From: Verrucomicrobiota bacterium
Lineage (GTDB): Bacteria > Verrucomicrobiota > Verrucomicrobiia > Chthoniobacterales > UBA10450
DNA: 64,000 nucleotides
NCBI GenBank assembly: GCA_041167045.1
Contig: JBEEGW010000001.1
Span: 6,514 to 70,513 of the forward strand
Direction: 5' to 3'
The notes below the pieces were generated by a model that was not told the DNA's origin, searched no databases, and saw only the letters and a program-made list of their open reading frames with translations. Made by a program: the position numbers and the translations under genes. Position 1 is the first letter of the stretch, and every line of letters starts with the position of its first letter. Shown piece by piece: positions 799-51,702 of the stretch.

Positions 799-1427
799 TT
801 GCGAGTGAAACGTGGTTCCGTTCCATTCATCAGGCGAGAAAAATTCGAGCGGTGTCGCCAGACAATGATCGCCGCGATCGCAATCGAAAAATAAAAGAGT
901 GCCGCGCCGTGCATGATGATGCCCGCCCAGGAAAAAATTGCGACCGTGACTGGCAACGTTGTCGCGGCCGCTACGGAGGCCACGGAAACATACCGTGTCG
1001 TTTCGAATGCGATCACCCAAACAATCAGACCAACAGCAGCAACGAGCGGCATCAACGCGATGACGACGCCGCTCGAGGTGGCGGCGCCCTTACCTCCTTT
1101 GAATCGTAACCAGATCGGAAAGGAATGGCCGACCACGCAAGAGATCGCTGCAATAATGGCGCAGATCTCAAGTGGTTCGCCTCGGTATCCCATTCTCTCA
1201 CCGACAAAAATCGCGGCCCGAACCGCAAGAATGCCTTTCAGTGCGTCGACGAGAAACACGGCGTAGCCAAATCGTTTTCCTAAAAGGCGTACCACATTTG
1301 TCGCCCCGATATTGCCGCTTCCCGCGGCCCTAACATCGACATGAGCAAATCGGCCGACGAGAAATCCCGTTGGAAACGATCCTAACAGATATCCCATCGT
1401 CGCGACTATAAATACGCTGGAAATCAT
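795..1427 (-). CDS. plsY: glycerol-3-phosphate acyltransferase PlsY
   Basis: 210-aa multi-TM protein with typical PlsY motifs (GSGNIGATNV, HSFPIWLRFKGGKG). The gpsA-plsY adjacency is conserved. Confidence 0.85.
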   Translation of the reverse strand: MISSVFIVATMGYLLGSFPTGFLVGRFAHVDVRAAGSGNIGATNVVRLLGKRFGYAVFLVDALKGILAVRAAIFVGERMGYRGEPLEICAIIAAISCVVGHSFPIWLRFKGGKGAATSSGVVIALMPLVAAVGLIVWVIAFETTRYVSVASVAAATTLPVTVAIFSWAGIIMHGAALFYFSIAIAAIIVWRHRSNFSRLMNGTEPRFTRK

Positions 1428-3274
1428 AAATGAGCATGGTTTGTGTTACGTAAATGATTCTTGCTAAGCCAGATAGATATAATAGACACATCGGCCGGCG
1501 TTATGCCGGCAATTCTACGAGCTTGACCGACTGAGGTGGGTTGGGCAGTTCGCAGTTTTTCGCGAGTCTCGTTTCGCAGACCGGGGATAGTCGAATAATC
1601 GAAATCAACCGGCAAGGCCTGCAAATCCTGTCGCGCACCGTGAGAGACTTGATGCTGTTGTCGCTTGATGTACCCCTCATACTTGATGTCGGATTCGACC
1701 AGCTCCCAGATTTCCGCAACGCCCAAACAGGAAGTTTGCTTGAGTAGATCGTGAGCGTGAAAGCTAGGTTTTCGTAGCAGGCTTTCCACTGACTCACCCT
1801 GGACTCTGGTTTCACGTGCTGCTTGACGGGCACGTTCTAGCGAACCCATTTTAGCTTCAAAACTTCGCCAACGCTGGGCACCGACGAGGCCAGCTTGGAA
1901 CCCAATCTTAGTGAGCCGTTGATCCGCGTTATCTTGACGTAGCGCGAGTCGTTGCTCGGCCCTACTCGTAAACATGCGATATGGTTCATCGGTACCTTTG
2001 TTGACGAGATCGTCGATCATGACCCCTATGTAAGAAATCTCCCTCGACAGAATCAACGGCGGTTGTCCTTTCGCTTGAAGGGCGGCGTTTGCACCGGCGA
2101 TCAATCCCTGGGCTGCGGCCTCTTCATAACCCGACGTGCCGTTGACCTGGCCGGCGAAAAAAAGGCCGCGCAAAACTTTTGTTTCCAAGGTGGGATGGAG
2201 TTGCGTCGGAGGAAAAAAATCATATTCCACCGCGTAGCCAGGGCGCATAATTTCTGCTGTTTCTAACCCAGGGATGGAGCGAAGGAACTCGAGCTGCACA
2301 TCGTACGGCAGGCTGGTAGAAGTTCCGTTGACATAAAACTCGTCGGTTTGTAAGCCCTCAGGTTCTAGAAAAAGTTGGTGCGCGGACTTGGCGTTAAACC
2401 TAACGACCTTGTCTTCGATGGATGGACAATAGCGGGGTCCGGTTCCCTTGATGCGACCCGCGTAAAGGGGAGACCGGTGCAAATTGCGTCGGATTATTTC
2501 ATGAGTTTTCTCGGTCGTGTGCGTAATCCAGCAGGGAATTTGTTCCATGTGGAACTTGGAGCTTTCCTTGCTCGAGCCCCCGTTCATAAAGCTGAACTTG
2601 CGCGGAGGATCGTCCCCTTTCTGCACCTCGCACTTGGAAAAATCGATCGAATGCCGATTTATCCGGCAAGGTGTCCCTGTTTTGAAACGAGCCGAAACCA
2701 GCTTTAGCTGCCGAAGGTCATCGCTCAAATTGGATGCCGAATCGGCCATTCTACCCCCAGCCTTGGAAGTTTCCCCCACGTGGAGAAGCCCCCGCAGAAA
2801 TGTGCCTGCGGTCACAACAACCGTTTTTCCCCGGAATGCCACGCCGATGTCCGTTTCTACCCCTGCTACTTCCTCAGAACTCCTTAAGATACGCAGAACA
2901 GTCGCTTGCTTAACGTCTAGGCCGCTCGTCCTTTCGAGTAACGCCTTCACCCAGAATTGATACGCCTTCTTGTCGCATTGCACTCTCAGGGCCTGAACGC
3001 TTGGCCCCTTTCGCCGATTCAACACCCGAAACTGGATTCCAGTGGTGTCCGCCGCAATACCCATTATGCCATCCAACGCGTCGATTTCCGAAACGAGATG
3101 ACTCTTGCCGAGGCCACCAACCGCGGGATTGCACGACATTTGCGCGATCGTATCGAGATTTTGGGTCAGCATTAGAGTCGCACACCCGGCCCGTGTAGCC
3201 GCCAATGCTGCTTCCACGCCAGCATGGCCGCTCCCAACGACAATTACGTCGTATTCTTTTTGCACCGTGAACAT
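1424..3274 (-). CDS. mnmG: tRNA uridine-5-carboxymethylaminomethyl modification enzyme MnmG (GidA)
   Basis: 616 aa. N-terminal FAD-binding YDVIVVGSGHAGVEAALAATRAG and the full-length GidA architecture. Confidence 0.95.
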   Translation of the reverse strand: MFTVQKEYDVIVVGSGHAGVEAALAATRAGCATLMLTQNLDTIAQMSCNPAVGGLGKSHLVSEIDALDGIMGIAADTTGIQFRVLNRRKGPSVQALRVQCDKKAYQFWVKALLERTSGLDVKQATVLRILRSSEEVAGVETDIGVAFRGKTVVVTAGTFLRGLLHVGETSKAGGRMADSASNLSDDLRQLKLVSARFKTGTPCRINRHSIDFSKCEVQKGDDPPRKFSFMNGGSSKESSKFHMEQIPCWITHTTEKTHEIIRRNLHRSPLYAGRIKGTGPRYCPSIEDKVVRFNAKSAHQLFLEPEGLQTDEFYVNGTSTSLPYDVQLEFLRSIPGLETAEIMRPGYAVEYDFFPPTQLHPTLETKVLRGLFFAGQVNGTSGYEEAAAQGLIAGANAALQAKGQPPLILSREISYIGVMIDDLVNKGTDEPYRMFTSRAEQRLALRQDNADQRLTKIGFQAGLVGAQRWRSFEAKMGSLERARQAARETRVQGESVESLLRKPSFHAHDLLKQTSCLGVAEIWELVESDIKYEGYIKRQQHQVSHGARQDLQALPVDFDYSTIPGLRNETREKLRTAQPTSVGQARRIAGITPADVSIISIWLSKNHLRNTNHAHL

Positions 3275-4456: not shown

Positions 4457-6280
4457 TCAAACACTTCGCGCAAATTCCGCCAGCTCACTCGTTGTCTCGT
4501 ACCGCAGGAAGGGTGTGATGAGATAGACGCCCGGAAAATGGGCGAGCGCTTCTCGCGTAATTTCCTGCGCGAGTTTCATCCCGTACTCGCAAGCCTCCGC
4601 TGATCCCAGCGCCGACAATGCGGCACGCACTTTCTCCGGCACGATGATGCCGGGCACTTCGTTGTGCAAAAATTCTGCCTGCCGCCCACTTAGCAGCGGC
4701 CACACTCCCGTGAAAATCGGCACGCCCAGGTGCTCGGTGCGCCGATGCATTTGCTCGACAAGATCGACATCAAAAACCGGCTGTGTCATGACAAACCGCG
4801 CGCCCGCCGCCACTTTGCGCTCGAGCCGTTCAACCTGCGCGTCGAGATTTTTCGAGTTTGGATTAAACGTGCACCCGATCACAAAATCCGTCGCTGTGCG
4901 GATTGATTTCCCGGAATTGCTGAAGCCTTCGTTCATGCGCTTAATGATGGCGATCAGCTCAATCGAGTTGACGTCGTAAACCGAAGCCGCGCCCGGCTGA
5001 TCGCCCACGCGCGCCGGATCGCCGGTCAAAGGCAACACATGTCGCATGCCCAGTGCGGCCATTCCGAGCAGCTCACTTTGCAGGCCGAGCAAGTTGCGAT
5101 CGCGACAACTCAAATGGAGCAGCGGCGTAATTCCAAATCGTTCTTTTAACATCGCGCCGACCGCGAGATTGCTCACCCGCAAAATGGCCAGCGAATTGTC
5201 AGCCAGGGTGATTGCATCGCAACCTGCTTTCACGAGGCTTTGTGCGCCGGCGAAGAATTTTTCCAAAACCAATGTCTTCGGCGGATCCAGCTCGCAAATG
5301 ACTACGCGTTTTCCATTGTCGATCTTGTCGAGCAGGCTTTCTTCCGTTGCCCTTTGTTTTGGCGCCGGAATCGCACGCGGCGGTTCGGCAGTCACGCGTA
5401 CCGATTTTGTTTTTATCGGTTCAAGATCAGCGATCGCCCCCGCAATCGCGGCGATATGTTTCGGATTCGTTCCGCAACAGCCGCCGATCAGGCGCGCGCC
5501 TTCCGCTACCATCTCGCGCGCCGATTTTGCAAAATAATCCGGCGCGGTGTGATAAATAAACCGGCCCTCATGATATTTCGGGTAACCTGCGTTCGCATAC
5601 GCCGCGATCAGATATTTTGCCGGCACATGTTCCAGTAATTGCACCGTGCCGTGCGGACCGTTCATGCAATTCACTCCCAGGATTTTTGCATCGCGCTCGT
5701 GCAATCGCGCAAATGCGTCGACCAACAATTCGCCGCTTGCTAAGCGGCCTTCCGGCGCGCAAGCGAACGAGCAAATCGCGAGAGGATCTCCCAGCTCGCG
5801 CGCGGCTTGAAAGGCGAGCGCCAGTTCTTCGAAATCCATGAACGTTTCGAAAAAGACAAGATCGACATCTTCCTCCAGCAGCGCTGCAATTTGTTCCCGA
5901 AAACATTCCGCCCGATCAATGCCGCGAGCTTTCGCTTCGTCGGCCGTGATGCCAAGCGGTCCCACGCTGCCTGCCACGTAAACATTTTTATTCTTTGCCG
6001 CTCCTCGCGCTACGCGAACCGCCGCTCGGTTAATTTCGCTCACCCGGCTTTCCAATCCGAATCGCTCCAGTCGAACAGCGTTCGCACCGAACGTGTTTGT
6101 TTCGATCACGCGCGCGCCGGCCGCGATATATTCCTGGTGGATCGTCCGGATGCGATCCGGCTCGCTCACACAAAGCTCTTCAAAGCTCCGTTCCAGAGGA
6201 ACGCCCGCTTCGAGCAGCAGCGTGCCAATCGCGCCGTCGCCACAGAGCAAGCGGCTTTGCAATTCATCTACCAGATCCAT
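4457..6280 (-). CDS. bifunctional homocysteine S-methyltransferase domain / 5,10-methylenetetrahydrofolate reductase
   Basis: 607 aa. N-terminal Hcy-binding domain (GGCCGTNPKHI zinc motif) fused to a MetF-like MTHFR domain. Confidence 0.8.
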   Translation of the reverse strand: MDLVDELQSRLLCGDGAIGTLLLEAGVPLERSFEELCVSEPDRIRTIHQEYIAAGARVIETNTFGANAVRLERFGLESRVSEINRAAVRVARGAAKNKNVYVAGSVGPLGITADEAKARGIDRAECFREQIAALLEEDVDLVFFETFMDFEELALAFQAARELGDPLAICSFACAPEGRLASGELLVDAFARLHERDAKILGVNCMNGPHGTVQLLEHVPAKYLIAAYANAGYPKYHEGRFIYHTAPDYFAKSAREMVAEGARLIGGCCGTNPKHIAAIAGAIADLEPIKTKSVRVTAEPPRAIPAPKQRATEESLLDKIDNGKRVVICELDPPKTLVLEKFFAGAQSLVKAGCDAITLADNSLAILRVSNLAVGAMLKERFGITPLLHLSCRDRNLLGLQSELLGMAALGMRHVLPLTGDPARVGDQPGAASVYDVNSIELIAIIKRMNEGFSNSGKSIRTATDFVIGCTFNPNSKNLDAQVERLERKVAAGARFVMTQPVFDVDLVEQMHRRTEHLGVPIFTGVWPLLSGRQAEFLHNEVPGIIVPEKVRAALSALGSAEACEYGMKLAQEITREALAHFPGVYLITPFLRYETTSELAEFARSV

Positions 6281-8952: not shown

Positions 8953-10082
8953 GCAAGAACGGAAAACGCGCACTCGTTACCGGCGGCGCCGGGTTGATCG
9001 GTTCGCACGTTGTCGATCTTCTCGTGCGCGAAGGTTGGCAAGTACGCGTGCTAGATAATCTAGAGCCGAACACGCATAAGTGCGGCAAACCTTCCTGGAT
9101 CAACCCCGCCGCGGAATTTGTCGAAGGCGACATGCGCGATCCAGAAACCGTCGCCGCCGCCCTCGACAAGATCGACATAGTTTTTCACCAGGCCGCCTAT
9201 GGCGGCTACATGCCCGAGATCGCGAAATACGTTCACGTCAATTCGCTCGGCACCGCGCAAATGCTCGAGATCATTCGCGAAAAAAACTTGCCGATCCAAA
9301 AAATCATCGTCGCCAGCTCGCAGGCAGTTTACAGCGAAGGCGCCGGCGAATGTCCGAAGCACAGGCTTGTTTTTCCGCCGGTGCGCCCCGTCGAACAATT
9401 GCAGCGGGGCGATTGGTCGGTGCGTTGTCCGCTCTGCGACGCGATTACGAAAAGCGTTCCGACTCTGGAAAACGCGCCCGTCGGCGGCGAAACAGTTTAC
9501 GGTCTGACGAAAGTCGATCAGGAAAAGCTCGTGCTGCTGTGGGGAAAACAAACCGGCATTCCCACGGTCGCGTTGCGCTACTCATGCACGTACGGGCCGC
9601 GCCAATCGATTTTCAATCCGTACACCGGCGTGATCGCGATTTTTTGCACGCGCCTGCTCAACAATTTGCCGCCCGTGCTTTACGAAGATGGCGACCAAAC
9701 GCGCGATTTTTCGTTCGTCGAAGATATCGCGCGCGCCAACTTGCTCGCGGCCGAAACAGACACGCTCGACGGCTTGGCGGTCAACGTCGGCAGTGGCCGC
9801 GGCGTTTCCATTCGCGAAATCGCCCAGCAAATTTCCGCCGCGCTCAAGATCGACATAAAACCGGAAGCGAAAGGCGAATTTCGTCCCGGCGAGATGCGTC
9901 ATCTCACCAGCGACACCACACGCATTCGCGCCGCCGGTTACAAACCGAATGTCGATCTTGCCGAAGGAATTTCGCGCTATCTCGATTGGATCCGAGCGCA
10001 ATCTGATGTGCGCGATTATTTCAGCGAAGCGGAAAACATTTTGCGCAGCAAAGGCATCGTTCATCGCGTCGCGAAAAGGTGA
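8949..10082 (+). CDS. NAD-dependent epimerase/dehydratase (SDR family)
   Basis: ALVTGGAGLIGSH Rossmann motif and catalytic YxxxK region. The ATG at 8949 overlaps the upstream stop as ATGA (translational coupling). Confidence 0.85.
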   Translation: MSKNGKRALVTGGAGLIGSHVVDLLVREGWQVRVLDNLEPNTHKCGKPSWINPAAEFVEGDMRDPETVAAALDKIDIVFHQAAYGGYMPEIAKYVHVNSLGTAQMLEIIREKNLPIQKIIVASSQAVYSEGAGECPKHRLVFPPVRPVEQLQRGDWSVRCPLCDAITKSVPTLENAPVGGETVYGLTKVDQEKLVLLWGKQTGIPTVALRYSCTYGPRQSIFNPYTGVIAIFCTRLLNNLPPVLYEDGDQTRDFSFVEDIARANLLAAETDTLDGLAVNVGSGRGVSIREIAQQISAALKIDIKPEAKGEFRPGEMRHLTSDTTRIRAAGYKPNVDLAEGISRYLDWIRAQSDVRDYFSEAENILRSKGIVHRVAKR

Positions 10083-13216: not shown

Positions 13217-14164
13217 TTGCACGCTGTGCTAGATTCATCTGTGGAGAAAGTAGTCATCGTGGGAAGCGGTTGCGCTGGTTTGACGGCCGCGATTTATGCA
13301 GCGCGCGCCAATTTAAATCCGCTCGTTCTCGAAGGCCGGCAACCGGGCGGACAACTTTCAACCACCACGCTCGTAGAAAATTTCCCCGGATTTCCTGACG
13401 GGATCGATGGGCCAAAACTGATCATGGACATGCACAAGCAGGCGGAAAAATTCGGCGCGCGATTTTCTTACGCGGAAGTGACCGACTTCGAGCCGCACAA
13501 CGAACATGTGCGCATCAAAGCGGATGACGAATGGATTGACACGCAAGCGTTGATCGTAGCGAGCGGCGCGTCGGCACGTTACTTGAAACTTGAGAACGAA
13601 GAAAAACTCATTGGTCACGGCCTAACGAGTTGCGCGACGTGCGACGGCGCGTTTTACAAAAACGTTCCGGTGTGCGTAATCGGCGGCGGCGATTCCGCGG
13701 CGGAAGAAGCGATCTTCCTCACGCGTTTCGCTTCGAAAGTTTATTTGATTCATCGACGCGACAAAATGCGCGCATCGAAAATCATGGTAGACCGCGTGCT
13801 CGCCAACAAAAAGATCGAGCCAATCTGGAACACGATCGTGACCAAATACATTCCGGATGAGCGCGGCGAAATGCACGCGGTGCGGCTGCGCAATGTGGAA
13901 ACCAAAGAAGAACGCGAGCTGCCGGTGGCGTGCGTGTTTGTCGCGATCGGTCACGATCCGAACACGAAAGCGTTCGCTGGAAAACTTGAGACCGATCCGG
14001 ATGGCTATTTGATCGCGCGCCATCTAGCCGAGAGCAAACATCCTGCCGTCTTCATCGCCGGCGACGTAGCCGATCGCGTCTACAAACAAGCGGTCACCGC
14101 GGCTGGCTCCGGCTGCGCCGCGGCCCTGGAAGCCGAGAAGTATCTCAGCGGGCTGGGGAAATAA
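13217..14164 (+). CDS. trxB: thioredoxin-disulfide reductase
   Basis: FAD motif GSGCAG, redox-active CATCDG and NADPH motif GGGDSA. Confidence 0.9.
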   Translation: MHAVLDSSVEKVVIVGSGCAGLTAAIYAARANLNPLVLEGRQPGGQLSTTTLVENFPGFPDGIDGPKLIMDMHKQAEKFGARFSYAEVTDFEPHNEHVRIKADDEWIDTQALIVASGASARYLKLENEEKLIGHGLTSCATCDGAFYKNVPVCVIGGGDSAAEEAIFLTRFASKVYLIHRRDKMRASKIMVDRVLANKKIEPIWNTIVTKYIPDERGEMHAVRLRNVETKEERELPVACVFVAIGHDPNTKAFAGKLETDPDGYLIARHLAESKHPAVFIAGDVADRVYKQAVTAAGSGCAAALEAEKYLSGLGK

Positions 14165-14197
14165 TCTCTGATTATTCCGGCCTTCGGTCGCTCAACT

Positions 14198-14244
14198 GAA
14201 ATAGTCAGAGATGCTTCGCCTTCGCTCAGCATGACAAAAAAGTG
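14198..14244 (+). promoter_or_regulatory. conserved upstream leader element, copy A, with mini-uORF ATG-ACA-AAA-AAG-TGA overlapping the GTG start of the GT4 gene
   Basis: About 40 nt (AATAGTCAGAGATGCTTCGCCTTCGCTCAGCATGACAAAA) is 35/40 identical to a sequence upstream of the S9 peptidase gene at 39154. It is preceded by an imperfect inverted repeat TCTCTGATTATT (14166..14177) / AATAGTCAGAGA (14200..14211). Confidence 0.5.
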
Positions 14245-15417
14245 AAGATTTGCGATCTGACGCAGTTTTATTCGCCGCTCAGCGGCGGCGTGAAACGTTA
14301 CGTTCACGAAAAGATTGCGTATATCCAAAATCATTCGCCGGAAGACGAGCACGTTCTCATTATTCCGGGACCGAAAACGGACAAGATCGACAACGACCGG
14401 TCGCGCATTTACGAAATTCATTCGCCGCTTATCTCACGCAGTTCGCGTTATCGCGCGCTCTTGAATCTGCGCGCGGTCGAAGAAATTCTGGAGCGCGAGC
14501 GGCCGGACATCATCGAATCCAGTGATCCGTATCAGATCGCGTGGAAAGCGATCGCTTCAGGACGAGCTCTGCAAATTCCGGTCGTCGCTTTTTATCATTC
14601 GCATTTTGCGGAAGCGTATTTGCGTAGCACGGAAAAATTTCTGGGGCGACGCGCGACTGAACTCGTCATGAAAGCCGCGCGAAGTTATGTCCGCAAACTT
14701 TACAATCAATTTGAAGCGACGCTGGTTCCGTCGCTGCGATTGGCGCGCGTTCTCGAAGATTGGGGCGTGAAAAATATTCACGCGGTTAATCTCGGCGTGA
14801 ACACGGAAATTTTTCGGCCGACGCCAAACGACGCAGCGGTGACGCGGCAGTCGTTAGGCGTACAAGATCGACATAAACTTTTGCTCTACGTGGGCCGACT
14901 CGCGCCGGAAAAAAATACGTCGATCTTATTTCAGGCTTTCGAACTGCTCGCCGCGCGGCGGCCGAATGATTTTCATCTGCTCGTCATCGGCGACGGCCCG
15001 CAGCGCGAACAATTGGAACAACTGAAATCGCGCACAAATGCTGTGACATGGATTCGCTATTGCGCGGAATCGGTTGAACTATCTCGATTTTATCGCGCGG
15101 CCGATCTTTTCGTTCATCCCGGAATCCAGGAAACGTTCGGATTTGTTGCGCTGGAAAGTCAGGCTTGTGGGACGCCGGTGGTCGGAATTCGCGGCAGTTA
15201 CATGGACCGCATCATTTTTCACGAACAGGAATCGTGGGCGCGCGAAAATTCGGTGGAAGCGCTGGCTGATGCGATCGAAGCGTCGAGCGAAAAAAAATTG
15301 TCGATCCTGGGAGCAGAGGCTGCGCGCCTGGCCGAGGAGCGTTACGCATGGCCGCGCGTCTTCGAACGCTTCTTTTGCATTTATCGCGAAGTTTGCGCAA
15401 ACTACCGCCGTGCCTGA
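14242..15417 (+). CDS. glycosyltransferase family 4 (group 1)
   Basis: 391 aa GT-B protein with the E-x7-E region (FGFVALESQACGTPVV). GTG start. Confidence 0.85.
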   Translation: MKICDLTQFYSPLSGGVKRYVHEKIAYIQNHSPEDEHVLIIPGPKTDKIDNDRSRIYEIHSPLISRSSRYRALLNLRAVEEILERERPDIIESSDPYQIAWKAIASGRALQIPVVAFYHSHFAEAYLRSTEKFLGRRATELVMKAARSYVRKLYNQFEATLVPSLRLARVLEDWGVKNIHAVNLGVNTEIFRPTPNDAAVTRQSLGVQDRHKLLLYVGRLAPEKNTSILFQAFELLAARRPNDFHLLVIGDGPQREQLEQLKSRTNAVTWIRYCAESVELSRFYRAADLFVHPGIQETFGFVALESQACGTPVVGIRGSYMDRIIFHEQESWARENSVEALADAIEASSEKKLSILGAEAARLAEERYAWPRVFERFFCIYREVCANYRRA

Positions 15418-25726: not shown

Positions 25727-27484
25727 ATGGACAAAGCCGCGATCGCTGACGTCTTGGAAAATATCGCCACGCTCCTCGAACTAAAGGGCGAGAATCCGTT
25801 CAAGATCCGCGCTTACATTAACGCGGCGCGTTCGCTCGAGACGTGGGGCGGAAATTTTTCCGACCTGTCGAATGAAGAAACGCTCGAGAAAATTCCGGGC
25901 ATCGGCAAAGCGATCGCCGCGAAAATCAGAGAACTGGTCGAGACCGACGCGCTCAAATTTTACGAAGAACTGCGCGCCGAATTTCCCGCCGACATCCTGG
26001 AATTATTTTCGATTCCCGGGCTCGGCGCGAAAAAAATCAAAGCGCTTTATGAAAAGCTGAAAGTGAGCTCGATCGCGGAATTGCAAAAAGCCTGCGAATC
26101 CAATCTCGTCGCGGAACTGCCCGGGTTCGGCAAGACTACGCAGGAGAAGCTTTGTGAAGCGATTGCCAAACGCGCCAAACACGCGGGCTCATTTCAACTT
26201 GGCCAGATCACGGCGGAGGCCGAGACGCTGCAAAACGATCTGCGCGCACATCCGGACGCGCAGCATGTTTGCATCGCCGGGAGTTATCGCCGGAGCAAGG
26301 AGATCGTGCGCGATCTCGATTTTATCGTCGCAACGAAAAAGCCGGCCGCGATTTCAAAAATCTTCATCGAAGACGCGCTCGTGGAATCGGTTATCGCGCA
26401 AGGCCCCACCAAATCGAGCGTCCGACTGCGCTCCGGGATTCAATGCGATCTTCGCGTGGTGACTGACGCGGAGTATCCGTTCGCGCTAAATTATTTTACC
26501 GGCAGCAAGGAGCACAACATCGAGATGCGCAGCCGCGCACTGAAACGCGGCTGGACTTTGAACGAATATCGCATCGCACCGCTTCCGCCGGATCCGGAAG
26601 CGAAAAAGACAAGATCGACATATAAAATTCCGCGCGTGCGTGATGAGGCGGAATTGTATCGCGCTCTCGATCTCGATTTTATTCCGCCGGAGCTGCGTGA
26701 GGACTGCGGGGAATTTGCGGCGGCGGCGAATCATTCGTTGCCAACGCTGATCGAGAAAGAAGATCTGCGCGGAACATTTCATTGCCACACCACTGCGAGT
26801 GATGGGCACAATTCGCTCGAAGAGATGGCGGCCGCGGCGCAGGCGCTCGGTTTGCAATATCTCGGCATCGCCGATCACAGCCGCAGTTCGGTGCAAGCGC
26901 ACGGTCTCGACCGAACACGATTGCACGCGCAGGTGAAAGCGATCCGCCAGCTGAATGAAAGTTCCAAAAAGTTTCGGATCTTCGCCGGCGTGGAGTGCGA
27001 CATCTTGCGCGACGGCTCGCTCGACTTCGACGACGAAACGCTGGCGGAAATGGATTACGTGGTCGCATCCGTGCATTCGAGTCACGGCATGCCGGAAGCG
27101 GAAATGACGGCGCGAGTCATTCGCGCGATCGGGAATCCGTTCGTCACGATCCTGGCGCATCCGACCGGGCGACTGCTGCTCAAGCGCGATGGTTACAAGA
27201 TCGACATACCCGCGGTCATCGATGCCGCGGCGGCGACTGGAACCTGGATTGAAATTAACGCCGCGCCCAAGCGACTCGATCTTGATTGGCGCTGGTGGCC
27301 GCGCGCGAAAGAAAAAGGAGTGAAGTGCGTGATCAATCCCGACGCGCATCGCGTGGAGCGATTGCGAGATTTGTGGTTCGGCGTGGGCGTGGCGCGCAAA
27401 GGTTGGTTGACGAAAGATGACGTAATGAATTGTTTGCCGATCGACAAGATCGACATGGCGTTGCGGGCAAAGCGCGAGCGATAA
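25727..27484 (+). CDS. polX: DNA polymerase X family protein with C-terminal PHP phosphoesterase domain
   Basis: Pol beta-like HhH/palm N-terminus (GIGKAIAAKI, GSYRRSKEIVRDLDFIV) plus a PHP domain (HCHTTASDG). The start is called at the ATG at 25727, after the SLT stop; the ORF-track start at 25562 overlaps the SLT gene. Confidence 0.85.
   Translation: MDKAAIADVLENIATLLELKGENPFKIRAYINAARSLETWGGNFSDLSNEETLEKIPGIGKAIAAKIRELVETDALKFYEELRAEFPADILELFSIPGLGAKKIKALYEKLKVSSIAELQKACESNLVAELPGFGKTTQEKLCEAIAKRAKHAGSFQLGQITAEAETLQNDLRAHPDAQHVCIAGSYRRSKEIVRDLDFIVATKKPAAISKIFIEDALVESVIAQGPTKSSVRLRSGIQCDLRVVTDAEYPFALNYFTGSKEHNIEMRSRALKRGWTLNEYRIAPLPPDPEAKKTRSTYKIPRVRDEAELYRALDLDFIPPELREDCGEFAAAANHSLPTLIEKEDLRGTFHCHTTASDGHNSLEEMAAAAQALGLQYLGIADHSRSSVQAHGLDRTRLHAQVKAIRQLNESSKKFRIFAGVECDILRDGSLDFDDETLAEMDYVVASVHSSHGMPEAEMTARVIRAIGNPFVTILAHPTGRLLLKRDGYKIDIPAVIDAAAATGTWIEINAAPKRLDLDWRWWPRAKEKGVKCVINPDAHRVERLRDLWFGVGVARKGWLTKDDVMNCLPIDKIDMALRAKRER
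27439..27455 (+). repeat. tandem overlapping copies of the hyper-abundant motif (GATCGACAAGATCGACA), encoding IDKIDM in the PolX C-terminus
   Basis: Read directly from the sequence. Exact 10-mer AAGATCGACA at 27446..27455, preceded by GATCGACA at 27439..27446. Confidence 0.9.
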
Positions 27485-31357: not shown

Positions 31358-32698
31358 TTAATGCGGAACAGTCGGCAATTGCAGCATTAGATTCGGATTG
31401 GTCGTTCCCGTTTGCAGCAGGTACGCGGGGTATTGCCCATTCCAATGCTCAACCCGAGCGCGCTCCACTTCGAGCGAACGCAGTTGGTAAAGCAACGGAT
31501 TCTGCTGCGCTTCGGCGAGCGCCTTGTTCACTTCGCGAATCGATTGCGCTTCCGCTTGCGCGGCGATCTTCTTCGCATCGGCCTCGCCCGACGCGATACG
31601 ACGCGCGCGTTCCGCGACCGCGTTTGCCTCGAGCGTGACGCGATCGTTGTCGCGTTGCTGCGCGGCAAACTTCGCTTCGTTTACCACTTTCAACTGTTGC
31701 GCGATGACGGTGTTGTCGATCGCTTTTTGGATTTCGCCATTCTCGTAGGTCATTCCCCCAAACATTCCGACCGTTGTGATGACGATGCCGCGTTGCGCGA
31801 AGAAATTCGTGATGTCGATCTTCACCGCATCCGAAATTTCCTGTTTCCGCGCGCGCAAGGCATCGAGCGGATATCGCGCCGCGATCTCGGCGCTCATTTG
31901 TTGAATGCGACCGCGCACTTCGGTGTCCATCACGTTTGCGAGCGAACCGGTCGGATACCAATAGAGGAACTTGGCCGCTTGCTCTTCCGGAATGAACGAT
32001 GTGCAGGTGAATCCCATGCTGAACCCGACACTGTCCGAGCTCTCGATCCAGATGGCCTGATTTTTCGCCGCCGTCCCGGTGGACGCTTCTGCTGTCCACT
32101 CGCGTGTCACAGGCGAACGATTCACTTTGATCAAACGCACCGTCGGAATCCAGCGGCCGCTGTTTGGCAGCCGGCCTTCCTGCGACCAACGATGCGTGAT
32201 CTGCACGCGCTTGGCTGCGACCTTCAGTTCGCGCAGATATTCTTCCGATTGAAACTTCGCCTGGCTTCCGCTGTTGCCCTCGAGCGGAATCAGGAAACCT
32301 GTTTCCGACGTATCGATCTCGGAATATTCCGGCGTGTCGTACGGACGCACGCAGCCGTTCAACGCAAAGATCGACATGGTGGCGACGATCGTTAGCGTCG
32401 GCCACCGTCGTGTCGCATCACGACGCGTTTTGCTCACCAACAGCCAAGCAGTCACGATGGCGATCACGATAATCGCTGCGTCGCCCGCCTCTTTGTAAGT
32501 TTCAAACAAACGCAATTGCCGAAAATCAGCATCGTTTCCATTCAATTGATGGATGGCGAGCTGGGTTGAGATGTTCGGTTGAATCGCGTTCAACCAAAAA
32601 CGCTCCATCGCAATCGCGCACACTACCACTGCAACAAACACCATTAATCTTTTAACAGTGCTCATTTTTTCCGTCCTTCTAAACTCGCCGGTTTTCAC
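31358..32698 (-). CDS. SPFH (band 7/prohibitin-like) domain protein with lipoprotein-like signal. The N-terminal extent is uncertain.
   Basis: A C-terminal coiled-coil Ala/Gln-rich region and an SPFH core. An internal RRWPTLTIVATMSIFALNGC resembles a lipobox signal peptide. The first ~110 aa (two TM segments) may be an extension or a separate small ORF. Confidence 0.55.
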   Translation of the reverse strand: MKTGEFRRTEKMSTVKRLMVFVAVVVCAIAMERFWLNAIQPNISTQLAIHQLNGNDADFRQLRLFETYKEAGDAAIIVIAIVTAWLLVSKTRRDATRRWPTLTIVATMSIFALNGCVRPYDTPEYSEIDTSETGFLIPLEGNSGSQAKFQSEEYLRELKVAAKRVQITHRWSQEGRLPNSGRWIPTVRLIKVNRSPVTREWTAEASTGTAAKNQAIWIESSDSVGFSMGFTCTSFIPEEQAAKFLYWYPTGSLANVMDTEVRGRIQQMSAEIAARYPLDALRARKQEISDAVKIDITNFFAQRGIVITTVGMFGGMTYENGEIQKAIDNTVIAQQLKVVNEAKFAAQQRDNDRVTLEANAVAERARRIASGEADAKKIAAQAEAQSIREVNKALAEAQQNPLLYQLRSLEVERARVEHWNGQYPAYLLQTGTTNPNLMLQLPTVPH

Positions 32699-32997
32699 CA
32701 GCGTTTTGCGTCCGCGCTTCTGCGGGAAGTTCAGACCTTCTGTGAGATTGGGGAAGGTTTTTTAGACACTCCTTGCTCTCGGTGTTTCGCTTACGAGGTT
32801 AGCTGTCGGGCTAGAACCACCAAGTGTTCCTGACGCCGCAGCGTCATGCGCCCCGATCTCTTTCGAGAATTTTGGATCCCCCGCTGGCCAGCACACGCCG
32901 GCCACTCAGCACTAACAAAGAACTACCTAATTAGACAGGAAGGCCCGGCTCGGCGTTCAGCGTGTCGCAACATGTCGATCTTGAGCCAATTGCGTGG

Positions 32998-38224: not shown

Positions 38225-39091
<867 letters not shown>

Positions 39092-39153
39092 AGCCCTAAA
39101 GTTTCCGTCCGCTCGCCAGCGCGAGCAAGCAGTTTTACCCTGGCCCCCGAATC

Positions 39154-39210
39154 AATAGTCAGAGATTCCTCGACTTCGCTCGGAATGACAAAATACAAAT
39201 AGGACGCATG
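39154..39210 (+). promoter_or_regulatory. conserved upstream leader element, copy B, with mini-uORF MTKYK (39185..39202) ending 5 nt before the peptidase ATG
   Basis: AATAGTCAGAGATTCCTCGACTTCGCTCGGAATGACAAAA followed by TACAAATAG GACGC ATGAAGATT. Both downstream genes begin M-K-I. Confidence 0.5.
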
Positions 39211-41424
39211 AAGATTCTCGTCATCGCAGTCAGTCTTGCCATTGCCGGTTCAGTTTTCGCACAGACGCCGTCGCCAAATGCGGCCGTGAATGGAAAACAT
39301 CCGTTCACATTCGAAGACATGATGGCGCTGAAGCGCGTCGGTGCGCCGCAGCCGTCGCCCGATGGGAAATGGGTCGTGTTGGACTGCGTCGATGTCGATC
39401 TTGCCGCGAACACGAAGATTTCGCATTTGTGGATCGTGCCAGCGAGCGGCGGTGAATCGAAGCGCTTGAATGAAACGCCGAATCATGAAGAGCGGCCGCG
39501 ATTTTCGCCCGATAGCAAACGCTTGATCTGGACGTCGAAAGCGACCGATCTGACGCAAATCTGGATGTGCGATTTCGATTCGAACGCAGGTTCGTTAGTC
39601 GGCAAACCGCATCAGCTTACAAACATTTCGACCGGCGCCGACGGCGCGATCTGGTCGCCAGATGGAAAGAACATTGTGTTCGTGTCGGCGGTGTATCCCG
39701 ATTGCAAAGACGACGCGTGCAACAAGCAGCGCGACGAAGAGCTGAAGGACAGCAAAGTGAAAGCGAAAATCTTCACGCGGCTGCTTTATCGACATTGGAA
39801 CGCGTTCACCGAATTCAAGCGCAGCCATTTGTTCGTCCTTAATGCAGACTCTTCTGTGGAGGCAGGCGTCTCGCCTGCGACATCTTCACAAACGCAGCCG
39901 GGGACGGCTGCCACCACAGCAGCACGCGATCTTACCCCCGGCGATCACGATGTGCCGCCGTTCAATCTCGGCGGTCAGGACATGTATGCGATTTCGCCGG
40001 ACGGCCAGGAGCTCGCTTACACGAGCAACATCGATGAAGTCGAAGCGACCAGCACGAACAACGAAATTTTCACTGTGCCGATGGCGGGCGGTGCGCCCAA
40101 GAAAATCTCTACCAGTCCCGGTGCCGATTCGACGCCACTCTATTCGCCGGATGGAAAATACATCGCCTGGCGATCGCAAGCCCACGCCGGCTTCGAAGCC
40201 GATAAATGGCGGCTCTTCGTAAAAGATCGTGAAAGCGGGCAAGTCCAAGACACAACTGCAACTCTCGATCGTTCTGTCGGCAGTTTCTGTTGGTGGGCCC
40301 GATTCGCACTGCTCTTTGCGACTGAATGGAGAGGCGAAACAGAATTCTATAACGTCATTCCCGGCATGGGCTCACACAAACCGTATGTTTCACCGCCGAC
40401 GAGATTCTCTGGGCACGCGGACGACCTCGCATGGTCGCAGAAAGTGCTTTTCTGCTCCGGCGCCACGGCAGCTGCGCCTAACGAGATCCTAAAGAACGAC
40501 GTCGACTATCCTGGTGACGGCATAATCTATGAAGCAGCGCACCCAGGAATGGTTCCGCTCACCCACATGAACGACGCGCTGTTGTCGAAGATCGACATGC
40601 CGCGGTTGGAGTCGTTCACGTTCAAAGGCGCGAACGACGAGGAGGTGCAGGGATTCATGATCAAGCCGCCGGGATTTGATCCGAGCAAAAGATATCCGCT
40701 GAAGCTTTTGATCCACGGCGGACCGCAAGGCTCGTTTGGAAATTCGTGGACGTATCGCTGGAACGCGGAGTTGATGGCCGTCGGCAACTCCGAAAGCTTT
40801 CGCGAGGGGGGCGGCTACGTGGTGGTGATGATCAACTTCCACGGCTCGACCGGTTACGGGCAGAAGTTTACCGATTCGATCAGCGGCGATTGGGGCGGCA
40901 AACCGTATGTCGATCTTATGCGCGGGCTCGATTACGTGGAGAAGACGTATCCGTTCATCGACAAGAACCGCGAGGCCGCGCTCGGCGCGAGCTACGGCGG
41001 TTACATGGCGAACTGGTTGCTCGGTCACACCGATCGCTTCAAATGTATCGTGTCGCACGACGGCGTGTTCAACAGCGAGTCGGCTTACGGCACGACCGAA
41101 GAACTTTGGTTCAACAATTGGGAATTCAAAGGTCCGCCGTGGAATAATCGCGAGCTTTACCGGAAATGGTCGCCGCACGAGTACGCGAAGAATTTCAAAA
41201 CGCCGACGCTGGTTGTGCACGGCCAGCTCGATTATCGGCTCGATGTTTCACAAGGCTTCGATCTTTTTACGACGCTGCAAACGCTGAAGGTGCCATCGAA
41301 GATGTTGTATTTCCCGGACGAAGGTCACTGGGTGCTCAAGCCGCAGAATTCGCGGCTTTGGTACAAAACGGTGAACGATTGGGTGGATCAGTGGTGCAGC
41401 GCAGCAGCGAATGCGAAAAACTGA
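39208..41424 (+). CDS. S9 family serine peptidase (N-terminal beta-propeller, C-terminal alpha/beta hydrolase)
   Basis: Signal peptide. TolB-like repeat region. Nucleophile elbow GASYGGYMANW plus Asp/His downstream. Confidence 0.85.
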   Translation: MKILVIAVSLAIAGSVFAQTPSPNAAVNGKHPFTFEDMMALKRVGAPQPSPDGKWVVLDCVDVDLAANTKISHLWIVPASGGESKRLNETPNHEERPRFSPDSKRLIWTSKATDLTQIWMCDFDSNAGSLVGKPHQLTNISTGADGAIWSPDGKNIVFVSAVYPDCKDDACNKQRDEELKDSKVKAKIFTRLLYRHWNAFTEFKRSHLFVLNADSSVEAGVSPATSSQTQPGTAATTAARDLTPGDHDVPPFNLGGQDMYAISPDGQELAYTSNIDEVEATSTNNEIFTVPMAGGAPKKISTSPGADSTPLYSPDGKYIAWRSQAHAGFEADKWRLFVKDRESGQVQDTTATLDRSVGSFCWWARFALLFATEWRGETEFYNVIPGMGSHKPYVSPPTRFSGHADDLAWSQKVLFCSGATAAAPNEILKNDVDYPGDGIIYEAAHPGMVPLTHMNDALLSKIDMPRLESFTFKGANDEEVQGFMIKPPGFDPSKRYPLKLLIHGGPQGSFGNSWTYRWNAELMAVGNSESFREGGGYVVVMINFHGSTGYGQKFTDSISGDWGGKPYVDLMRGLDYVEKTYPFIDKNREAALGASYGGYMANWLLGHTDRFKCIVSHDGVFNSESAYGTTEELWFNNWEFKGPPWNNRELYRKWSPHEYAKNFKTPTLVVHGQLDYRLDVSQGFDLFTTLQTLKVPSKMLYFPDEGHWVLKPQNSRLWYKTVNDWVDQWCSAAANAKN

Positions 41425-48196: not shown

Positions 48197-48988
48197 TCAC
48201 CAACTGCCGCTTGAGCCGCCGCCACCGAAACTTCCGCCGCCCCCGCTAAAGCCCGAGAAGCCACCGCCCGACGTACCAGAAGACCAGCCGCTGCCGCTGG
48301 ACCATCCTCCGACATACGGACCGCCGAATCCGGAATACGCAAACCCGCCGCGCCGTCGCCCGATGCGGATGAACATTAAGAGAACGATCATGAAAATCAG
48401 GAAGCCGAGAAGGCCTGCTCCGCCAGCAGCGTTGCCCCGTTTTTCCCTATCAGTTTTCCCGAGGCCGGTGTATTCGCCACGAATGGCCTTGCAGACCAGG
48501 TCAATTCCTTCCGCGAGCCCGCCTTCATAATCTCCATTCCGAAAATGAGGCTGAATGTGCCGGGTGCGAATATCGAAGGCAGTCACATCGGGCAGCGCGC
48601 CCTCGAGCCCATAACCGACTTGTATCGACATCTTGTGATCCTGCACGAAAACCAGGACGACCACGCCATTGCGCCGATCTTTTTGCCCGACCTGCCACGC
48701 TTGCGCGATGCGCTGCGCATAATCGTCGAGCGAAGATTCGCTCTCCATTTTTGGAAACAGAGCGACGACAACCTGATCCGAAGTTTCGCGCTCAAATTGC
48801 GCGAGCTGTTCGTTAAAACGAACCGCCGCGCTTTTTGAAACGACGCCGGCGTAATCGTTGAAGTAGCCCGCTGGTTTCGGCGGAATGATTTCCGCGGCGT
48901 GCGCGCAGACCGCGCTCACAATTAGCGCGAGGGCCGCAAACGACGGGATCCTTCGGCCTCGCTTCGCTGCGTTCAGGATGACGTGCAA
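48197..48988 (-). CDS. TPM domain protein (YgcG-like) with Gly/Ser-rich C-terminal tail
   Basis: Signal peptide, a TPM core (NGVVVLVFVQDHKMSIQVGYGLEG), a C-terminal TM and a GGS-rich tail. Confidence 0.6.
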   Translation of the reverse strand: MHVILNAAKRGRRIPSFAALALIVSAVCAHAAEIIPPKPAGYFNDYAGVVSKSAAVRFNEQLAQFERETSDQVVVALFPKMESESSLDDYAQRIAQAWQVGQKDRRNGVVVLVFVQDHKMSIQVGYGLEGALPDVTAFDIRTRHIQPHFRNGDYEGGLAEGIDLVCKAIRGEYTGLGKTDREKRGNAAGGAGLLGFLIFMIVLLMFIRIGRRRGGFAYSGFGGPYVGGWSSGSGWSSGTSGGGFSGFSGGGGSFGGGGSSGSW

Positions 48989-50305: not shown

Positions 50306-51702
50306 TTTGCTCCGATCGCGGTTTGGATCGCGTCGGCGATCCGATTTGCCTGTATGTCGATCTTGTCCCGCTCGCGGCCTTCAATCAACAGACGAATCTT
50401 CGGTTCGGTGCCGGAATAGCGCAAAAGCACGCGGCCTTTGCCGGCGAGTTCGCGCTCCACTTCGTCGCGCAATTTCACGACTTCGCGCAAGTCTTCGATT
50501 GGCGGTTTCGATTTCACTTTTAGGTTGCGTTGGGCTTGCGGATATTTTTTCAGGCAACCTTTCAATTCGCTGAGCGGCTGGCCTGTCGATTTCATGATCC
50601 GCAAAATTTGCAGCGCGCTGATGATGCCGTCGCCCGTGGTAGTGAAATCGCGAAAGATCATATGGCCGCTTTGTTCGCCGCCAAGATTGAGATTTCGCCC
50701 GACCATTTCTTCGATCACATAACGATCGCCCACTTTTGTGCGAATGACTTTGCCGCCGGCGCTCGCGAGCGTTTCATCCAAACCAAAATTGCTCATGACC
50801 GTCGCGACGAGCGTGTTTTCGCGCAGCCGTTCCGCGCGCAAAAGATCGACAGCCGCGATGGCGAGGATTTCGTCACCATCAACAATCTCGCCTTTTTCAT
50901 CGCAAAGCAGAACACGATCGGCATCGCCGTCGTGAGTGATGCCGATCTGCGCCTTGTTCTCTTTCACCAGCCGCTGGATTTCCGCCGGAAACATGCTGCC
51001 GCATTCCGCGTTGATGTTCGTTCCGTTCGGCGTGTTGTGCGCGACGAAGACGTCGGCGCCGAGTTCGCGCAAAATACACGGCGTCGATTTGTAAGCCGCA
51101 CCGTTCGCGACATCGACCGCGACGCGCATTTTTTCCAGCGACATCGAGCGCGGGAAACTGGTTTTGGCAAACTCGACATAACGGCCGAGCGCATCATCGA
51201 TGCGCCGGGCGCGCCCGATTTTTCCGGCGGTGGGACGAATGGAATCAATCTCGCCGGTGAAAACGAGCTGCTCGATCTCCTGTTCGATCTGGTCGTCGAG
51301 TTTGTAACCGTCGTGCCGAAAAAATTTGATGCCGTTATCCTCATAAGGATTATGCGACGCGGAGAGGACGATGCCGGCATCAGCGCGCAGCGATCGCGTG
51401 ATGTAAGCGACGCCCGGCGTGGGCAACGGACCAATGAGCAGAACATCGACGCCGAGCGAAGTGATGCCGGCGACGAGCGCGTTTTCGAGCATGTAACCGG
51501 AAAGCCGCGTGTCTTTGCCGAGAACAATTTTCGGACGCGCTCCAGCCGGAAGTGTGCGCGGATTGCGTTTCGTAAAAATGTGCGCGGCGGCTCGGCCGAG
51601 CTTGAGCGCGGTCTCAGCGGTGACGGGCTCGACATTGGCGATTCCGCGCACGCCGTCGGTGCCGAAGATTTTTTTCTCGGGCGATGTCGATCTTGTGGTC
51701 AT
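50302..51702 (-). CDS. glmM: phosphoglucosamine mutase
   Basis: FGTDGVRG, the active-site SASHNPYEDNG and C-terminal domains. The start is called at the ATG at 51702 (MTTRSTSPEKKIFGTDGVRG); the ORF-track extension to 51780 is not supported. Confidence 0.9.
   Translation of the reverse strand: MTTRSTSPEKKIFGTDGVRGIANVEPVTAETALKLGRAAAHIFTKRNPRTLPAGARPKIVLGKDTRLSGYMLENALVAGITSLGVDVLLIGPLPTPGVAYITRSLRADAGIVLSASHNPYEDNGIKFFRHDGYKLDDQIEQEIEQLVFTGEIDSIRPTAGKIGRARRIDDALGRYVEFAKTSFPRSMSLEKMRVAVDVANGAAYKSTPCILRELGADVFVAHNTPNGTNINAECGSMFPAEIQRLVKENKAQIGITHDGDADRVLLCDEKGEIVDGDEILAIAAVDLLRAERLRENTLVATVMSNFGLDETLASAGGKVIRTKVGDRYVIEEMVGRNLNLGGEQSGHMIFRDFTTTGDGIISALQILRIMKSTGQPLSELKGCLKKYPQAQRNLKVKSKPPIEDLREVVKLRDEVERELAGKGRVLLRYSGTEPKIRLLIEGRERDKIDIQANRIADAIQTAIGAN

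Follow-up and report, generated by a model that had tools for sequence, protein, structure and literature searches.

The 64,000-nt stretch analysed here (the window; positions 6,514 to 70,513 of contig JBEEGW010000001.1, assembly GCA_041167045.1, from a Verrucomicrobiota bacterium of the order Chthoniobacterales) carries two closely similar short sequences, hereafter copies A and B, directly upstream of a GT4 glycosyltransferase gene and an S9 peptidase gene, which are functionally unrelated. Both copies proved to be units of a dispersed, hairpin-forming intergenic repeat whose basic genomic form is an inverted dimer. The assignment of this element to the class of repeats tagged with CGTC or TGTC is made with high confidence, and the view that it would be recognised by a small GIY-YIG nuclease with moderate confidence; the combined reading, class and mechanism together, is given a probability of about 60%.

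The resemblance between the two sites, which had been reported in the original prediction, was confirmed: 14200-14239 (AATAGTCAGAGATGCTTCGCCTTCGCTCAGCATGACAAAA) and 39154-39193 (AATAGTCAGAGATTCCTCGACTTCGCTCGGAATGACAAAA) are 87.5% identical, with 5 of 40 positions differing. That prediction did not include the compensatory nature of the differences. Four of the five amount to two compensatory exchanges within a stem of 5 bp, which reads ATGCT/AGCAT in copy A and ATTCC/GGAAT in copy B, around a near-identical 12-nt centre. The 13-mer, allowing at most two mismatches, was found four times in the window against 0.52 expected, a number reached in none of 100 shuffles. The covariance model R1, built from copies elsewhere, recovered both sites with high scores (Table 1), while the third-ranked match in the window scored only 14 bits. 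The likeness between copies A and B is far beyond chance. The accompanying features were also present as described. The inverted repeat at copy A has its partner at 14164-14176 on the minus strand (AATAATCAGAGAT), with one mismatch and a 23-nt spacer; the mini-open reading frame (mini-ORF) in copy A (ATG ACA AAA AAG TGA) overlaps the GTG start codon at 14242 with its TGA, and that in copy B (ATG ACA AAA TAC AAA TAG) stops 5 nt short of the ATG at 39208; and the GT4 glycosyltransferase (14242-15417) and S9 peptidase (39208-41424) both open with (M)KI. Three interpretations had been offered for these sites, namely a small repeat element, an operator for a common regulator and a leader controlled by an upstream ORF (uORF), and only the first was borne out, by hundreds of copies in related genomes, mostly inverted dimers in near-background intergenic contexts. 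Further copies and conservation at orthologous genes had been named beforehand as what to look for; copies abound, and the element lies upstream of the GT4 orthologues in three of three genomes and of some S9 orthologues.

Each unit combines a TGTC tag that stays unpaired, a stem of 5 bp enclosing an invariant centre of 12 nt, a C immediately after the stem and a short tail. On the minus strand of the window, the unit reads T-GTC-AT-NNN-GAGCGAAGTCGA-N'N'N'-AT-C-TC, and the consensus of the tagged strand is 5'-yyT-GTC-AT-NNN-GAGCGAAG(T/C/G)CGA-N'N'N'-AT-C-TCTGACTATT-3'. The inner stem triplets occur in at least eight forms (TCC/GGA, GTC/GAC, CCT/AGG, GCT/AGC, TTC/GAA, CCC/GGG, TCT/AGA and GTT/AAC), all of which are complementary. 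When stem pairs were counted at every match to the conserved centre alone, across loci, the distribution was bimodal, with 119 sites having five pairs and 32 having four, where background matches had 0-2. Covariation was then assessed on 148 distinct aligned copies; these were preselected for at least four pairs, which biases the percentage paired (97% for the 5-bp helix) and leaves the covariation unbiased. The three inner pairs showed 38-78 double-sided changes each, and the covariation score was 0.418, compared with 0.176 in shuffles and at most 0.144 in controls with slid partners. The outermost pair was A-U in 137 of the 148 copies and the second pair U-A in 143, and G-U combinations in the three inner pairs filled only ca. 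8 cells against 159 double-sided changes.

On the plus strand, the positions that were invariant or at least 90% conserved comprised the 5' flank AGAG, the first two stem pairs, the 12-nt centre TCGACTTCGCTC and the 3' flank GAC-A. The GAC columns (GTC on the tagged strand) and the C beside the stem were each at least 90% conserved among the 148 copies. An outer GTC/GAC helix was considered and left out of the model: it showed no covariation, with the left GTC varying and GAC fixed, and the tag is therefore regarded as unpaired. The 12 nt between the stem arms allow at most one more canonical pair. The full dimer folded as single-stranded DNA (ssDNA) at ca. -24 kcal/mol on either strand (z ca. 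-3.5).

The dispersal of the element was assessed with an exact-pattern scan (GTCAGAGATNNNTCGNCTTCGCTCNNNATGAC, 21 specified bases) of one genome per species, which returned 91 genome loci. The bulk of these were soil metagenome-assembled genomes (MAGs) of Chthoniobacterales, Candidatus Udaeobacter and other Verrucomicrobiota, and a few, spread over at least six other phyla, belonged to Bacteroidales, Eubacteriales, Christensenella, Rubricoccaceae (one of them a complete chromosome), Victivallales, Limnocylindria, Doudnabacteria and a gammaproteobacterial bin. R1 identified 223 copies across these loci, which total 676 kb. Neighbouring copies were arranged as 64 (-,+), 3 (+,-) and 11 same-strand pairs, such that ca. 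60% of copies are arms of inverted dimers. Read on one strand, the dimer is TGTCAT..ATCTCTGACTATT - spacer - AATAGTCAGAGAT..ATGACA, measuring 72-112 nt from tag to tag, with the tags outermost and the tails facing a short variable spacer (mostly 6-30 nt in the 64 dimers). Both solo units, of which copy B is one, and half-decayed dimers like that of copy A are derived from this form. In 45 of 46 dimers the base before GTCAT was T, and target-site duplications flanking these 46 dimers were no more frequent than expected by chance. With gene calls that were crude (greedy longest ORFs), dimers occupied co-directional, divergent and convergent intergenic regions at about background proportions, and solo copies pointed towards the adjacent gene in 38 cases and away from it in 36. 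Given this lack of bias in orientation and context, nothing points to an element made for 5' leaders.

Flank-to-flank BLAST for a clean empty site gave candidates, none of them clean: the candidate in L039, compared with L009, was an internally deleted copy, and the intergenic sequence of L169/L170 was wholly different from that of L165/L166. A phage origin was rejected on the near-absence of the element from viral contigs (5 matches in 2.9 million). A literature search by the exact element sequence returned no match. Some loci carried rearranged forms. In a Eubacteriales MAG (L002, 3040-3265), four tandem units recur with a 61-nt period; a CRISPR-like array was considered there and dismissed, as the apparent spacers are identical and indicate tandem duplication. 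In a Bacteroidales MAG (L014, 3254-3340 and 4088-4170), the 3' half of the unit (CTCGAAATGACNGTTGGAAAG) stands in tandem behind a full copy, and the half-units are translated as MTVGKLEMTVGKLEMT at the start of a long ORF. A related second unit with the common centre and other flanks (TGTCATGTCGAGCCCTTCGACTTCGCTCAGGACAGGCT) was found in L022 (803-846), L044 (2006-2049), L058 (4045-4088) and L065 (3138-3181), and may be a composite or a sister subfamily.

Conservation at orthologous sites was seen in the trxB-GT4 intergenic region, where the window, L018 and L045 each carry a dimer within flanking DNA (mostly coding) that is 75-86% identical. The right arms are conserved in all three genomes, with stems that differ by compensatory changes (GCT/AGC, TCC/GGA and TCT/AGA), and the centre in L045 contains a 10-nt insertion. 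Together with the unalignable spacer, this pattern shows that the right arm is under constraint, or repeatedly corrected, at a fixed site. The left arm is complete in L018 and L045 (TGTCATGCTGAG..GAAGCATCTCT) and falls in a gap of the three-genome alignment in the window. There, the outer half of the arm, including the tag, has been deleted relative to the two other genomes, and only the inner tail AATAATCTCTGATTATT is recognisable. Consequently, the trxB frame of the window (13217-14164) enters the left-arm remnant, where its last codons and TAA stop lie; the trxB orthologues in L018 and L045 end differently and the whole arm is kept. The deletion thus joined the trxB 3' end to repeat sequence.

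Copy B occupies a 116-nt divergent region between a rhodanese gene (38225-39091, minus strand) and the S9 peptidase gene. At the S9 orthologue of L144/L145 (76% protein identity), a unit scoring 50.3 bits is located directly upstream as in the window, followed by the same A-rich continuation, and the upstream neighbour gene is different. Four of six lineages with an S9 orthologue lack the element at this site; since upstream synteny at S9 differs among relatives, only L144/L145 is informative. Conservation upstream of the GT4 and S9 orthologues represents constraint on the repeat arm itself and not a shared regulon.

The interpretation as a shared mRNA leader, in which the element would be the 5' untranslated region of the GT4 and S9 genes, with the mini-ORF governing translation through coupling or re-initiation or with an operator bound by a common regulator, has some points in its favour. 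Both window copies are sense-oriented and lie 2-12 nt upstream of a start codon, L018 and L045 keep this position at their GT4 orthologues and L144/L145 at the S9 orthologue, and the mini-ORF stop overlaps the start codon in the window and L018 (GTGA and ATGA, respectively). Moreover, the 55-nt divergent intergenic region of L144 consists almost entirely of the element, so that transcription signals must overlap it. However, neither the balanced orientation of solo copies nor the predominance of inverted-dimer arms is expected of a leader, and the element is missing from most S9 orthologue lineages. The ATGAC motif is at least 90% conserved in all copies, including dimer left arms and others that face no gene, whereas the mini-ORF varies in length and frame at orthologous sites (MTKK* in the window, MTKAR* in L018, MTV* in L045 and MTK* in L144). 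Its ATG arises because it is the complement of the conserved GTCAT tag. Among sense-oriented copies upstream of genes, the stop overlapped the start codon in ca. 4 of 9 printed examples counted by eye, not an excess over the one frame in three expected. Neither site contains a sigma-70-like promoter or intrinsic terminator pattern within the element, and the whole-window Rfam scan gave nothing at either site at the gathering threshold; E-value scans of the copy A region and the full L018 dimer yielded only chance-level miRNA and snoRNA matches. A stable RNA leader was rejected on the finding that single arms fold no better than shuffled sequence, and the two downstream genes share no function. 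Both mini-ORFs are thus most likely incidental, and we consider a leader or operator quite unlikely; any effect on GT4 or S9 expression would be a by-product of where the repeat landed, not the cause of the resemblance between copies A and B. A broader role at the RNA level, with co-transcribed hairpins or dimers acting as an mRNA stabiliser, processing site or insulator, for example between trxB and GT4, could co-exist with a DNA-level origin, and a benefit to the host would explain the conservation of the arms. The dimer is located between the co-directional trxB and GT4 genes in three genomes, a strong fold was obtained for the full dimer (z = -3.4 to -3.5), RNA of the copy A region reaches -25 kcal/mol (z = -2.7), and such roles are described for repetitive extragenic palindromes (REPs) and miniature inverted-repeat transposable elements (MITEs) in other bacteria (Di Nocera, De Gregorio and Rocco 2013, BMC Genomics, PMC3733652; hereafter Di Nocera 2013). 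Against this, the three inner stem pairs contain almost no G-U combinations, the element favours neither strand relative to genes, the invariant centre and conserved flanks point to sequence-specific recognition by a protein, and no RNA binding was found for SsnA, the nuclease discussed below (Chenal et al. 2025). An RNA-level function as the primary explanation is therefore judged unlikely.

Two further explanations invoke other mobilising enzymes. A classical REP or REPIN, mobilised and maintained by a REP-associated tyrosine transposase (RAYT; Y1/HUH type) as in Pseudomonas and Escherichia coli, would resemble the element in many respects: short hairpin units, inverted doublets of ca. 100 nt with a short spacer, intergenic placement, solo units as decayed doublets, the absence of target-site duplication, and vertical inheritance, with copies kept over long periods at orthologous sites (Bertels and Rainey 2011, PMC3116915; PMC3337134). 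Nevertheless, the conserved tag is TGTC rather than the GTAG of REPINs, and the core recurs in several phyla, unlike the lineage-specific pairs of REPINs and their Y1/HUH transposases. Of the 107 Pfam families that match the 49 ORFs of the window, the 25 most frequent include no transposase, and translations of the genes between closely spaced copies at related loci, read by eye, included none resembling a transposase or nuclease. CGTC-tagged repeats, according to Di Nocera (2013), are never associated with tyrosine transposase genes. Mobilisation by a RAYT thus seems improbable. A conventional MITE derived from an insertion sequence with a DDE transposase and terminal inverted repeats starting TGTCAT could account for a dimer of ca. 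100 nt with inverted TG...CA ends. This explanation is very improbable, since the 46 dimers lack target-site duplications beyond chance, each arm contains a covarying hairpin, for which a DDE terminal repeat has no need, conservation extends to many solo arms, and no related insertion sequence was seen in the ca. 900 kb of DNA examined.

The reading favoured here, a tagged repeat acted upon by a GIY-YIG nuclease, draws on the Ssn system of Neisseria. NTS is the longer, 28-nt form of dRS3, CGTCATTCCCGCGMAVGCGGGAATCYRG, and SsnA, a 94-aa single-domain GIY-YIG nuclease, binds and cuts NTS exclusively as ssDNA, with activity confined to the tagged strand (Chenal et al. 2025, Nat Commun, PMC11893778). 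Cutting relies mainly on the 3 nt before the palindrome, and binding most on the C just after it. Across phyla, ssn genes are typically flanked on both sides by Ssn-related motifs (SRMs), and the Ssn system in Neisseria lowers the integration of transforming DNA; Verrucomicrobia do not appear in the main text of that study. By analogy, the element most likely acts at the DNA level. Its tagged strand would fold when single-stranded, as during replication, repair or uptake of transforming DNA, and a small single-domain Ssn-type GIY-YIG nuclease would bind the hairpin and the following C and nick beside the GTC tag, with the tagged-strand sequence TTTTGTCATTCCGAGCGAAGTCGAGGAATCTCTGACTATT as the presumed ssDNA target. 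Given that the dimer has the NTS-ssn-NTS layout without the gene, it may be a gene-less, non-autonomous derivative. The mechanism is proposed from the match between the conserved positions and the published biochemistry.

A consensus of small GIY-YIG proteins, used solely as tblastn bait, retrieved real GIY-YIG proteins of ca. 95 aa from a wide range of phyla, and the conclusions are based on these real proteins. In three unrelated contigs (Uhrbacteria, Omnitrophota and a third organism), the published arrangement was recovered: an Ssn-like GIY-YIG gene stands between two TGTCATCCCGGCGAAGGCCGGGATCCAG-type hairpins, one on either side, whose tags face outward and whose form is (C/T)GTCAT..GAAG/GAAA..ATCCAG. 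Among the element loci, the consensus queries matched L034 alone. In L034, a GIY-YIG gene located 136 nt from a dimer encodes an 80-aa protein with a single PF01541 domain (38.7 bits). This protein has 73-90% identity to 625 database proteins, some labelled Chthoniobacterales or Verrucomicrobiota, and the invariant alignment columns include the Tyr, Arg and Glu of the GIY-YIG type (consensus MPWVYILRGSSGRHYIGS...). A strong copy of the element lies within ca. 200 nt of this gene in 4 of ca. 28 lineages, upstream in L034/L097 and the P0336 group and downstream in L104 and the P0305 group, and the P0322 group retains faint remnants downstream; no further strong copy was found in ca. 140 kb of flanks of the gene. 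The gene forms part of a cassette (L034 4600-5170; also in L097, L104 and L165-L182) composed of tRNA-Met, the GIY-YIG gene and a tRNA-like remnant, the orientation of which varies relative to neighbouring LMF1 and MaoC-like genes. The association is suggestive of an ancestral repeat-gene-repeat unit, as a post hoc observation in small numbers that is confounded by the tRNA neighbourhood.

Several observations weigh against the combined reading. A profile search of the window and loci L001-L096, ca. 740 kb around copies, found no Ssn-like gene, and no GIY-YIG gene was found between copies lying close together, where the genes looked like ordinary housekeeping genes when their translations were inspected by eye (no family search was run). 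Ca. 24 of the 28 lineages with the 80-aa protein have no copy nearby, the tRNA genes beside it could themselves attract repeats, and the relationship of the protein to the Ssn-like family is no more than distant (hhalign probability 71%, E 3.7e-5). The published SRM search string, HGTCWYN(0-2)YYVSBRHN(0-5)WNVSBRGN(0-2)RNCYNB, matched neither copy on its tagged strand nor any other part of the window. Five Watson-Crick pairs and an invariant 12-nt centre differ from the 8-9 bp stems given for CGTC families by Di Nocera (2013), and the centre, as inferred from sequence, can be drawn only as G.A, A.G, G-C and C.T oppositions with a GAAG loop. Single arms fold weakly as either DNA or RNA (-4 to -8.5 kcal/mol, z ca. 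-0.3 to -1), and the rarity of G-U pairs in the stem, while fitting pairing at the DNA level, is still compatible with an RNA role. For this element, cleavage, mobility and any link to transformation are putative.

The positions of the units and associated features in the window are summarised in Table 1. Besides copies A and B, a probable third copy with a longer, internally duplicated centre was found at the lemA/TPM gene junction. It corresponds to a weak R1 match (48935-48988, 14.3 bits, E 0.1) and was also recovered by a generic tagged-hairpin search requiring a complementary stem; similar variants with duplicated centres occur in related loci. Within the TPM-domain ORF (48197-48988), as seen from its translation and Pfam, it is translated as a charged N-terminal stretch, HVILNAAKRGRRI, that precedes a hydrophobic, signal-peptide-like segment of the protein, and this is possibly an intragenic or exapted copy.

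Table 1. Repeat units and associated features in the window (R1, covariance model built from copies elsewhere).
Feature	Position	Strand	Sequence or basis
Copy A, intact right arm of inverted dimer	14198..14241	-	R1 59.7 bits, E 7.6e-15; sequence read; stem covariation
Copy A, tagged strand (minus)	14198..14241	-	Reads TTTTGTCATGCTGAGCGAAGGCGAAGCATCTCTGACTATTTC
Copy A, stem arms (plus-strand numbering)	14211-14215; 14228-14232		ATGCT; AGCAT
Copy A, conserved centre (plus strand)	14216-14227		TCGCCTTCGCTC; GAC at 14233-14235
Dimer A, left arm, decayed and truncated	14138..14178	+	Weak minus-strand R1 match, 10 bits; 13-mer 14164-14176, 1 mismatch
Dimer A, spacer	14177..14199	.	Unalignable among window, L018 and L045, whereas the arms align
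Copy B, solo unit	39152..39195	-	R1 62.6 bits, E 1.1e-15; sequence read; tagged strand reads TTTTGTCATTCCGAGCGAAGTCGAGGAATCTCTGACTATTGA
Copy B, stem arms and centre (plus strand)	39165-39169; 39182-39186; centre 39170-39181		ATTCC; GGAAT
Mini-ORF MTKK*	14231..14245	+	ATG arises as complement to the conserved (T)GTCAT tag
Mini-ORF MTKYK*	39185..39202	+	ATG likewise the complement of the GTCAT tag
Probable third copy, long-centre variant	48947..48982	-	CGTCAT-CCT-GAACGCAGCGAAGCGAGGCCGA-AGG-ATC-CC

The window also contains an abundant 11-mer, CAAGATCGACA, with the extended consensus GA-CAAGATCGACA-T. There are 41 exact copies in 64 kb, 20 on the plus and 21 on the minus strand, against 0.02 expected from shuffles, or about one per 1.6 kb (e.g., 4759-4769, 5857-5867, 9167-9177, 26610-26620 and 51685-51695). 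Compared with ORF coordinates, and with no count made, it appears to lie mostly inside genes. The related Chthoniobacterales loci contain far fewer copies (26 in 676 kb), indicating that the 11-mer is lineage-specific. Its density behaves like that of a DNA uptake sequence (DUS) or other genome-wide signal, and a search for literature on CAAGATCGACA as a bacterial signal found none. The 11-mer and the NTS-like repeats together recall the DUS-plus-NTS pair of Neisseria. A far-reaching interpretation, which we regard as doubtful, is that this soil lineage of Chthoniobacterales near Udaeobacter, an abundant one, possesses a Neisseria-like two-signal system of natural transformation, in which CAAGATCGACA would serve as the uptake 11-mer and the TGTC-tagged hairpins would be cut as ssDNA by the 80-aa GIY-YIG protein; the nuclease would then represent a new Ssn-like subfamily specific for a 5-bp stem and the invariant GAGCGAAGTCGA centre. 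Elsewhere in the window, a c-di-AMP riboswitch of the ydaO/yuaA type (32773-32921, minus strand; 59.5 bits against a gathering threshold of 38) lies upstream of the ORF at 31358-32698 on the same strand. The gene mnmG/gidA, which is often found near the replication origin, is located at the start of the window (1424-3274, minus strand); GC skew across the window showed no clear switch.

These findings bear on the annotation of related genomes, in which look-alike sequences before unrelated genes represent repeat arms and carry no regulon signal. The tiny ORFs that the repeats create (MTK... and, on the other strand, ..VILSEAK.. or ..SLRSE..) should not be called genes. The CGTC-tagged REP and Ssn-motif class is extended to Verrucomicrobiota, a dominant soil phylum, and because the published search string misses the present variant with its minimal stem and invariant centre, published motif counts are probably underestimates. 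The element and the candidate nuclease offer a testable pairing for a family that is wanted as ssDNA tools, and the repeat and the uptake-sequence-like 11-mer hint at natural competence in an uncultured lineage.

Comparison with published families, made at the level of sequence, places the element with the CGTC/TGTC-tagged REP superfamily, to which Neisseria NTS/dRS3 and the Ssn-related motifs belong. By Di Nocera (2013), this superfamily is described as having a terminal CGTC that is 'changed to TGTC in many repeats', stems of 8-9 bp with complementary A-T residues almost invariably at the first and second positions, loops of 4-5 nt and a short unpaired 3-nt tail (consensus CCA). One type of inverted dimer prevails, head-to-tail dimers are negligible and occasional copies are intragenic. 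The families CGTC-1 to CGTC-4, with members including Neisseria dRS3, Rickettsia RPE-4/6 and Wolbachia repeats, are reported there from five phyla (Proteobacteria, Chlorobi, Bacteroidetes, Spirochaetes and Thermotogae), and for Verrucomicrobia only GTAG repeats of Opitutus terrae are mentioned. The present element has a conserved tail, but one that reads C-TC-TGAC rather than CCA, and it differs from that description in its occurrence in Verrucomicrobia, a phylum for which no CGTC repeats were reported. It agrees in the unpaired TGTC tag, which is accepted among the CGTC/TGTC/CCTC tags, in the A-T then T-A pairs that open the stem, and in the predominance of a single inverted dimer (64 against 3 of the opposite type and 11 direct pairs). 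Occasional intragenic copies, the lack of an associated transposase and a distribution over several phyla are likewise common to both.

With regard to NTS and the SRMs, the differences lie in the number of Watson-Crick pairs (5 rather than ca. 8), the inner GAGC..TCGA, which is invariant and forms no canonical pairing in the element, the tail (TCTGACTATT rather than CAG) and the lack of a cd10448-type ssn gene found beside the element. In view of its short stem, invariant centre, different tail and failure to match the SRM search string, the element is taken to work like an NTS/SRM within the TGTC/CGTC-tagged class while lying outside any described family. Nevertheless, both share the frame (C/T)GTC-AT-[stem]-G(A/C)A(A/G)-[stem']-AT-C as an oriented hairpin, and both are present in hundreds of intergenic copies spread across phyla. 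The inverted pair with its tags outward reproduces the NTS-ssn-NTS arrangement minus the gene. Furthermore, the GTC on which cutting by SsnA depends and the post-stem C on which its binding depends are the very unpaired positions that are conserved in the element.

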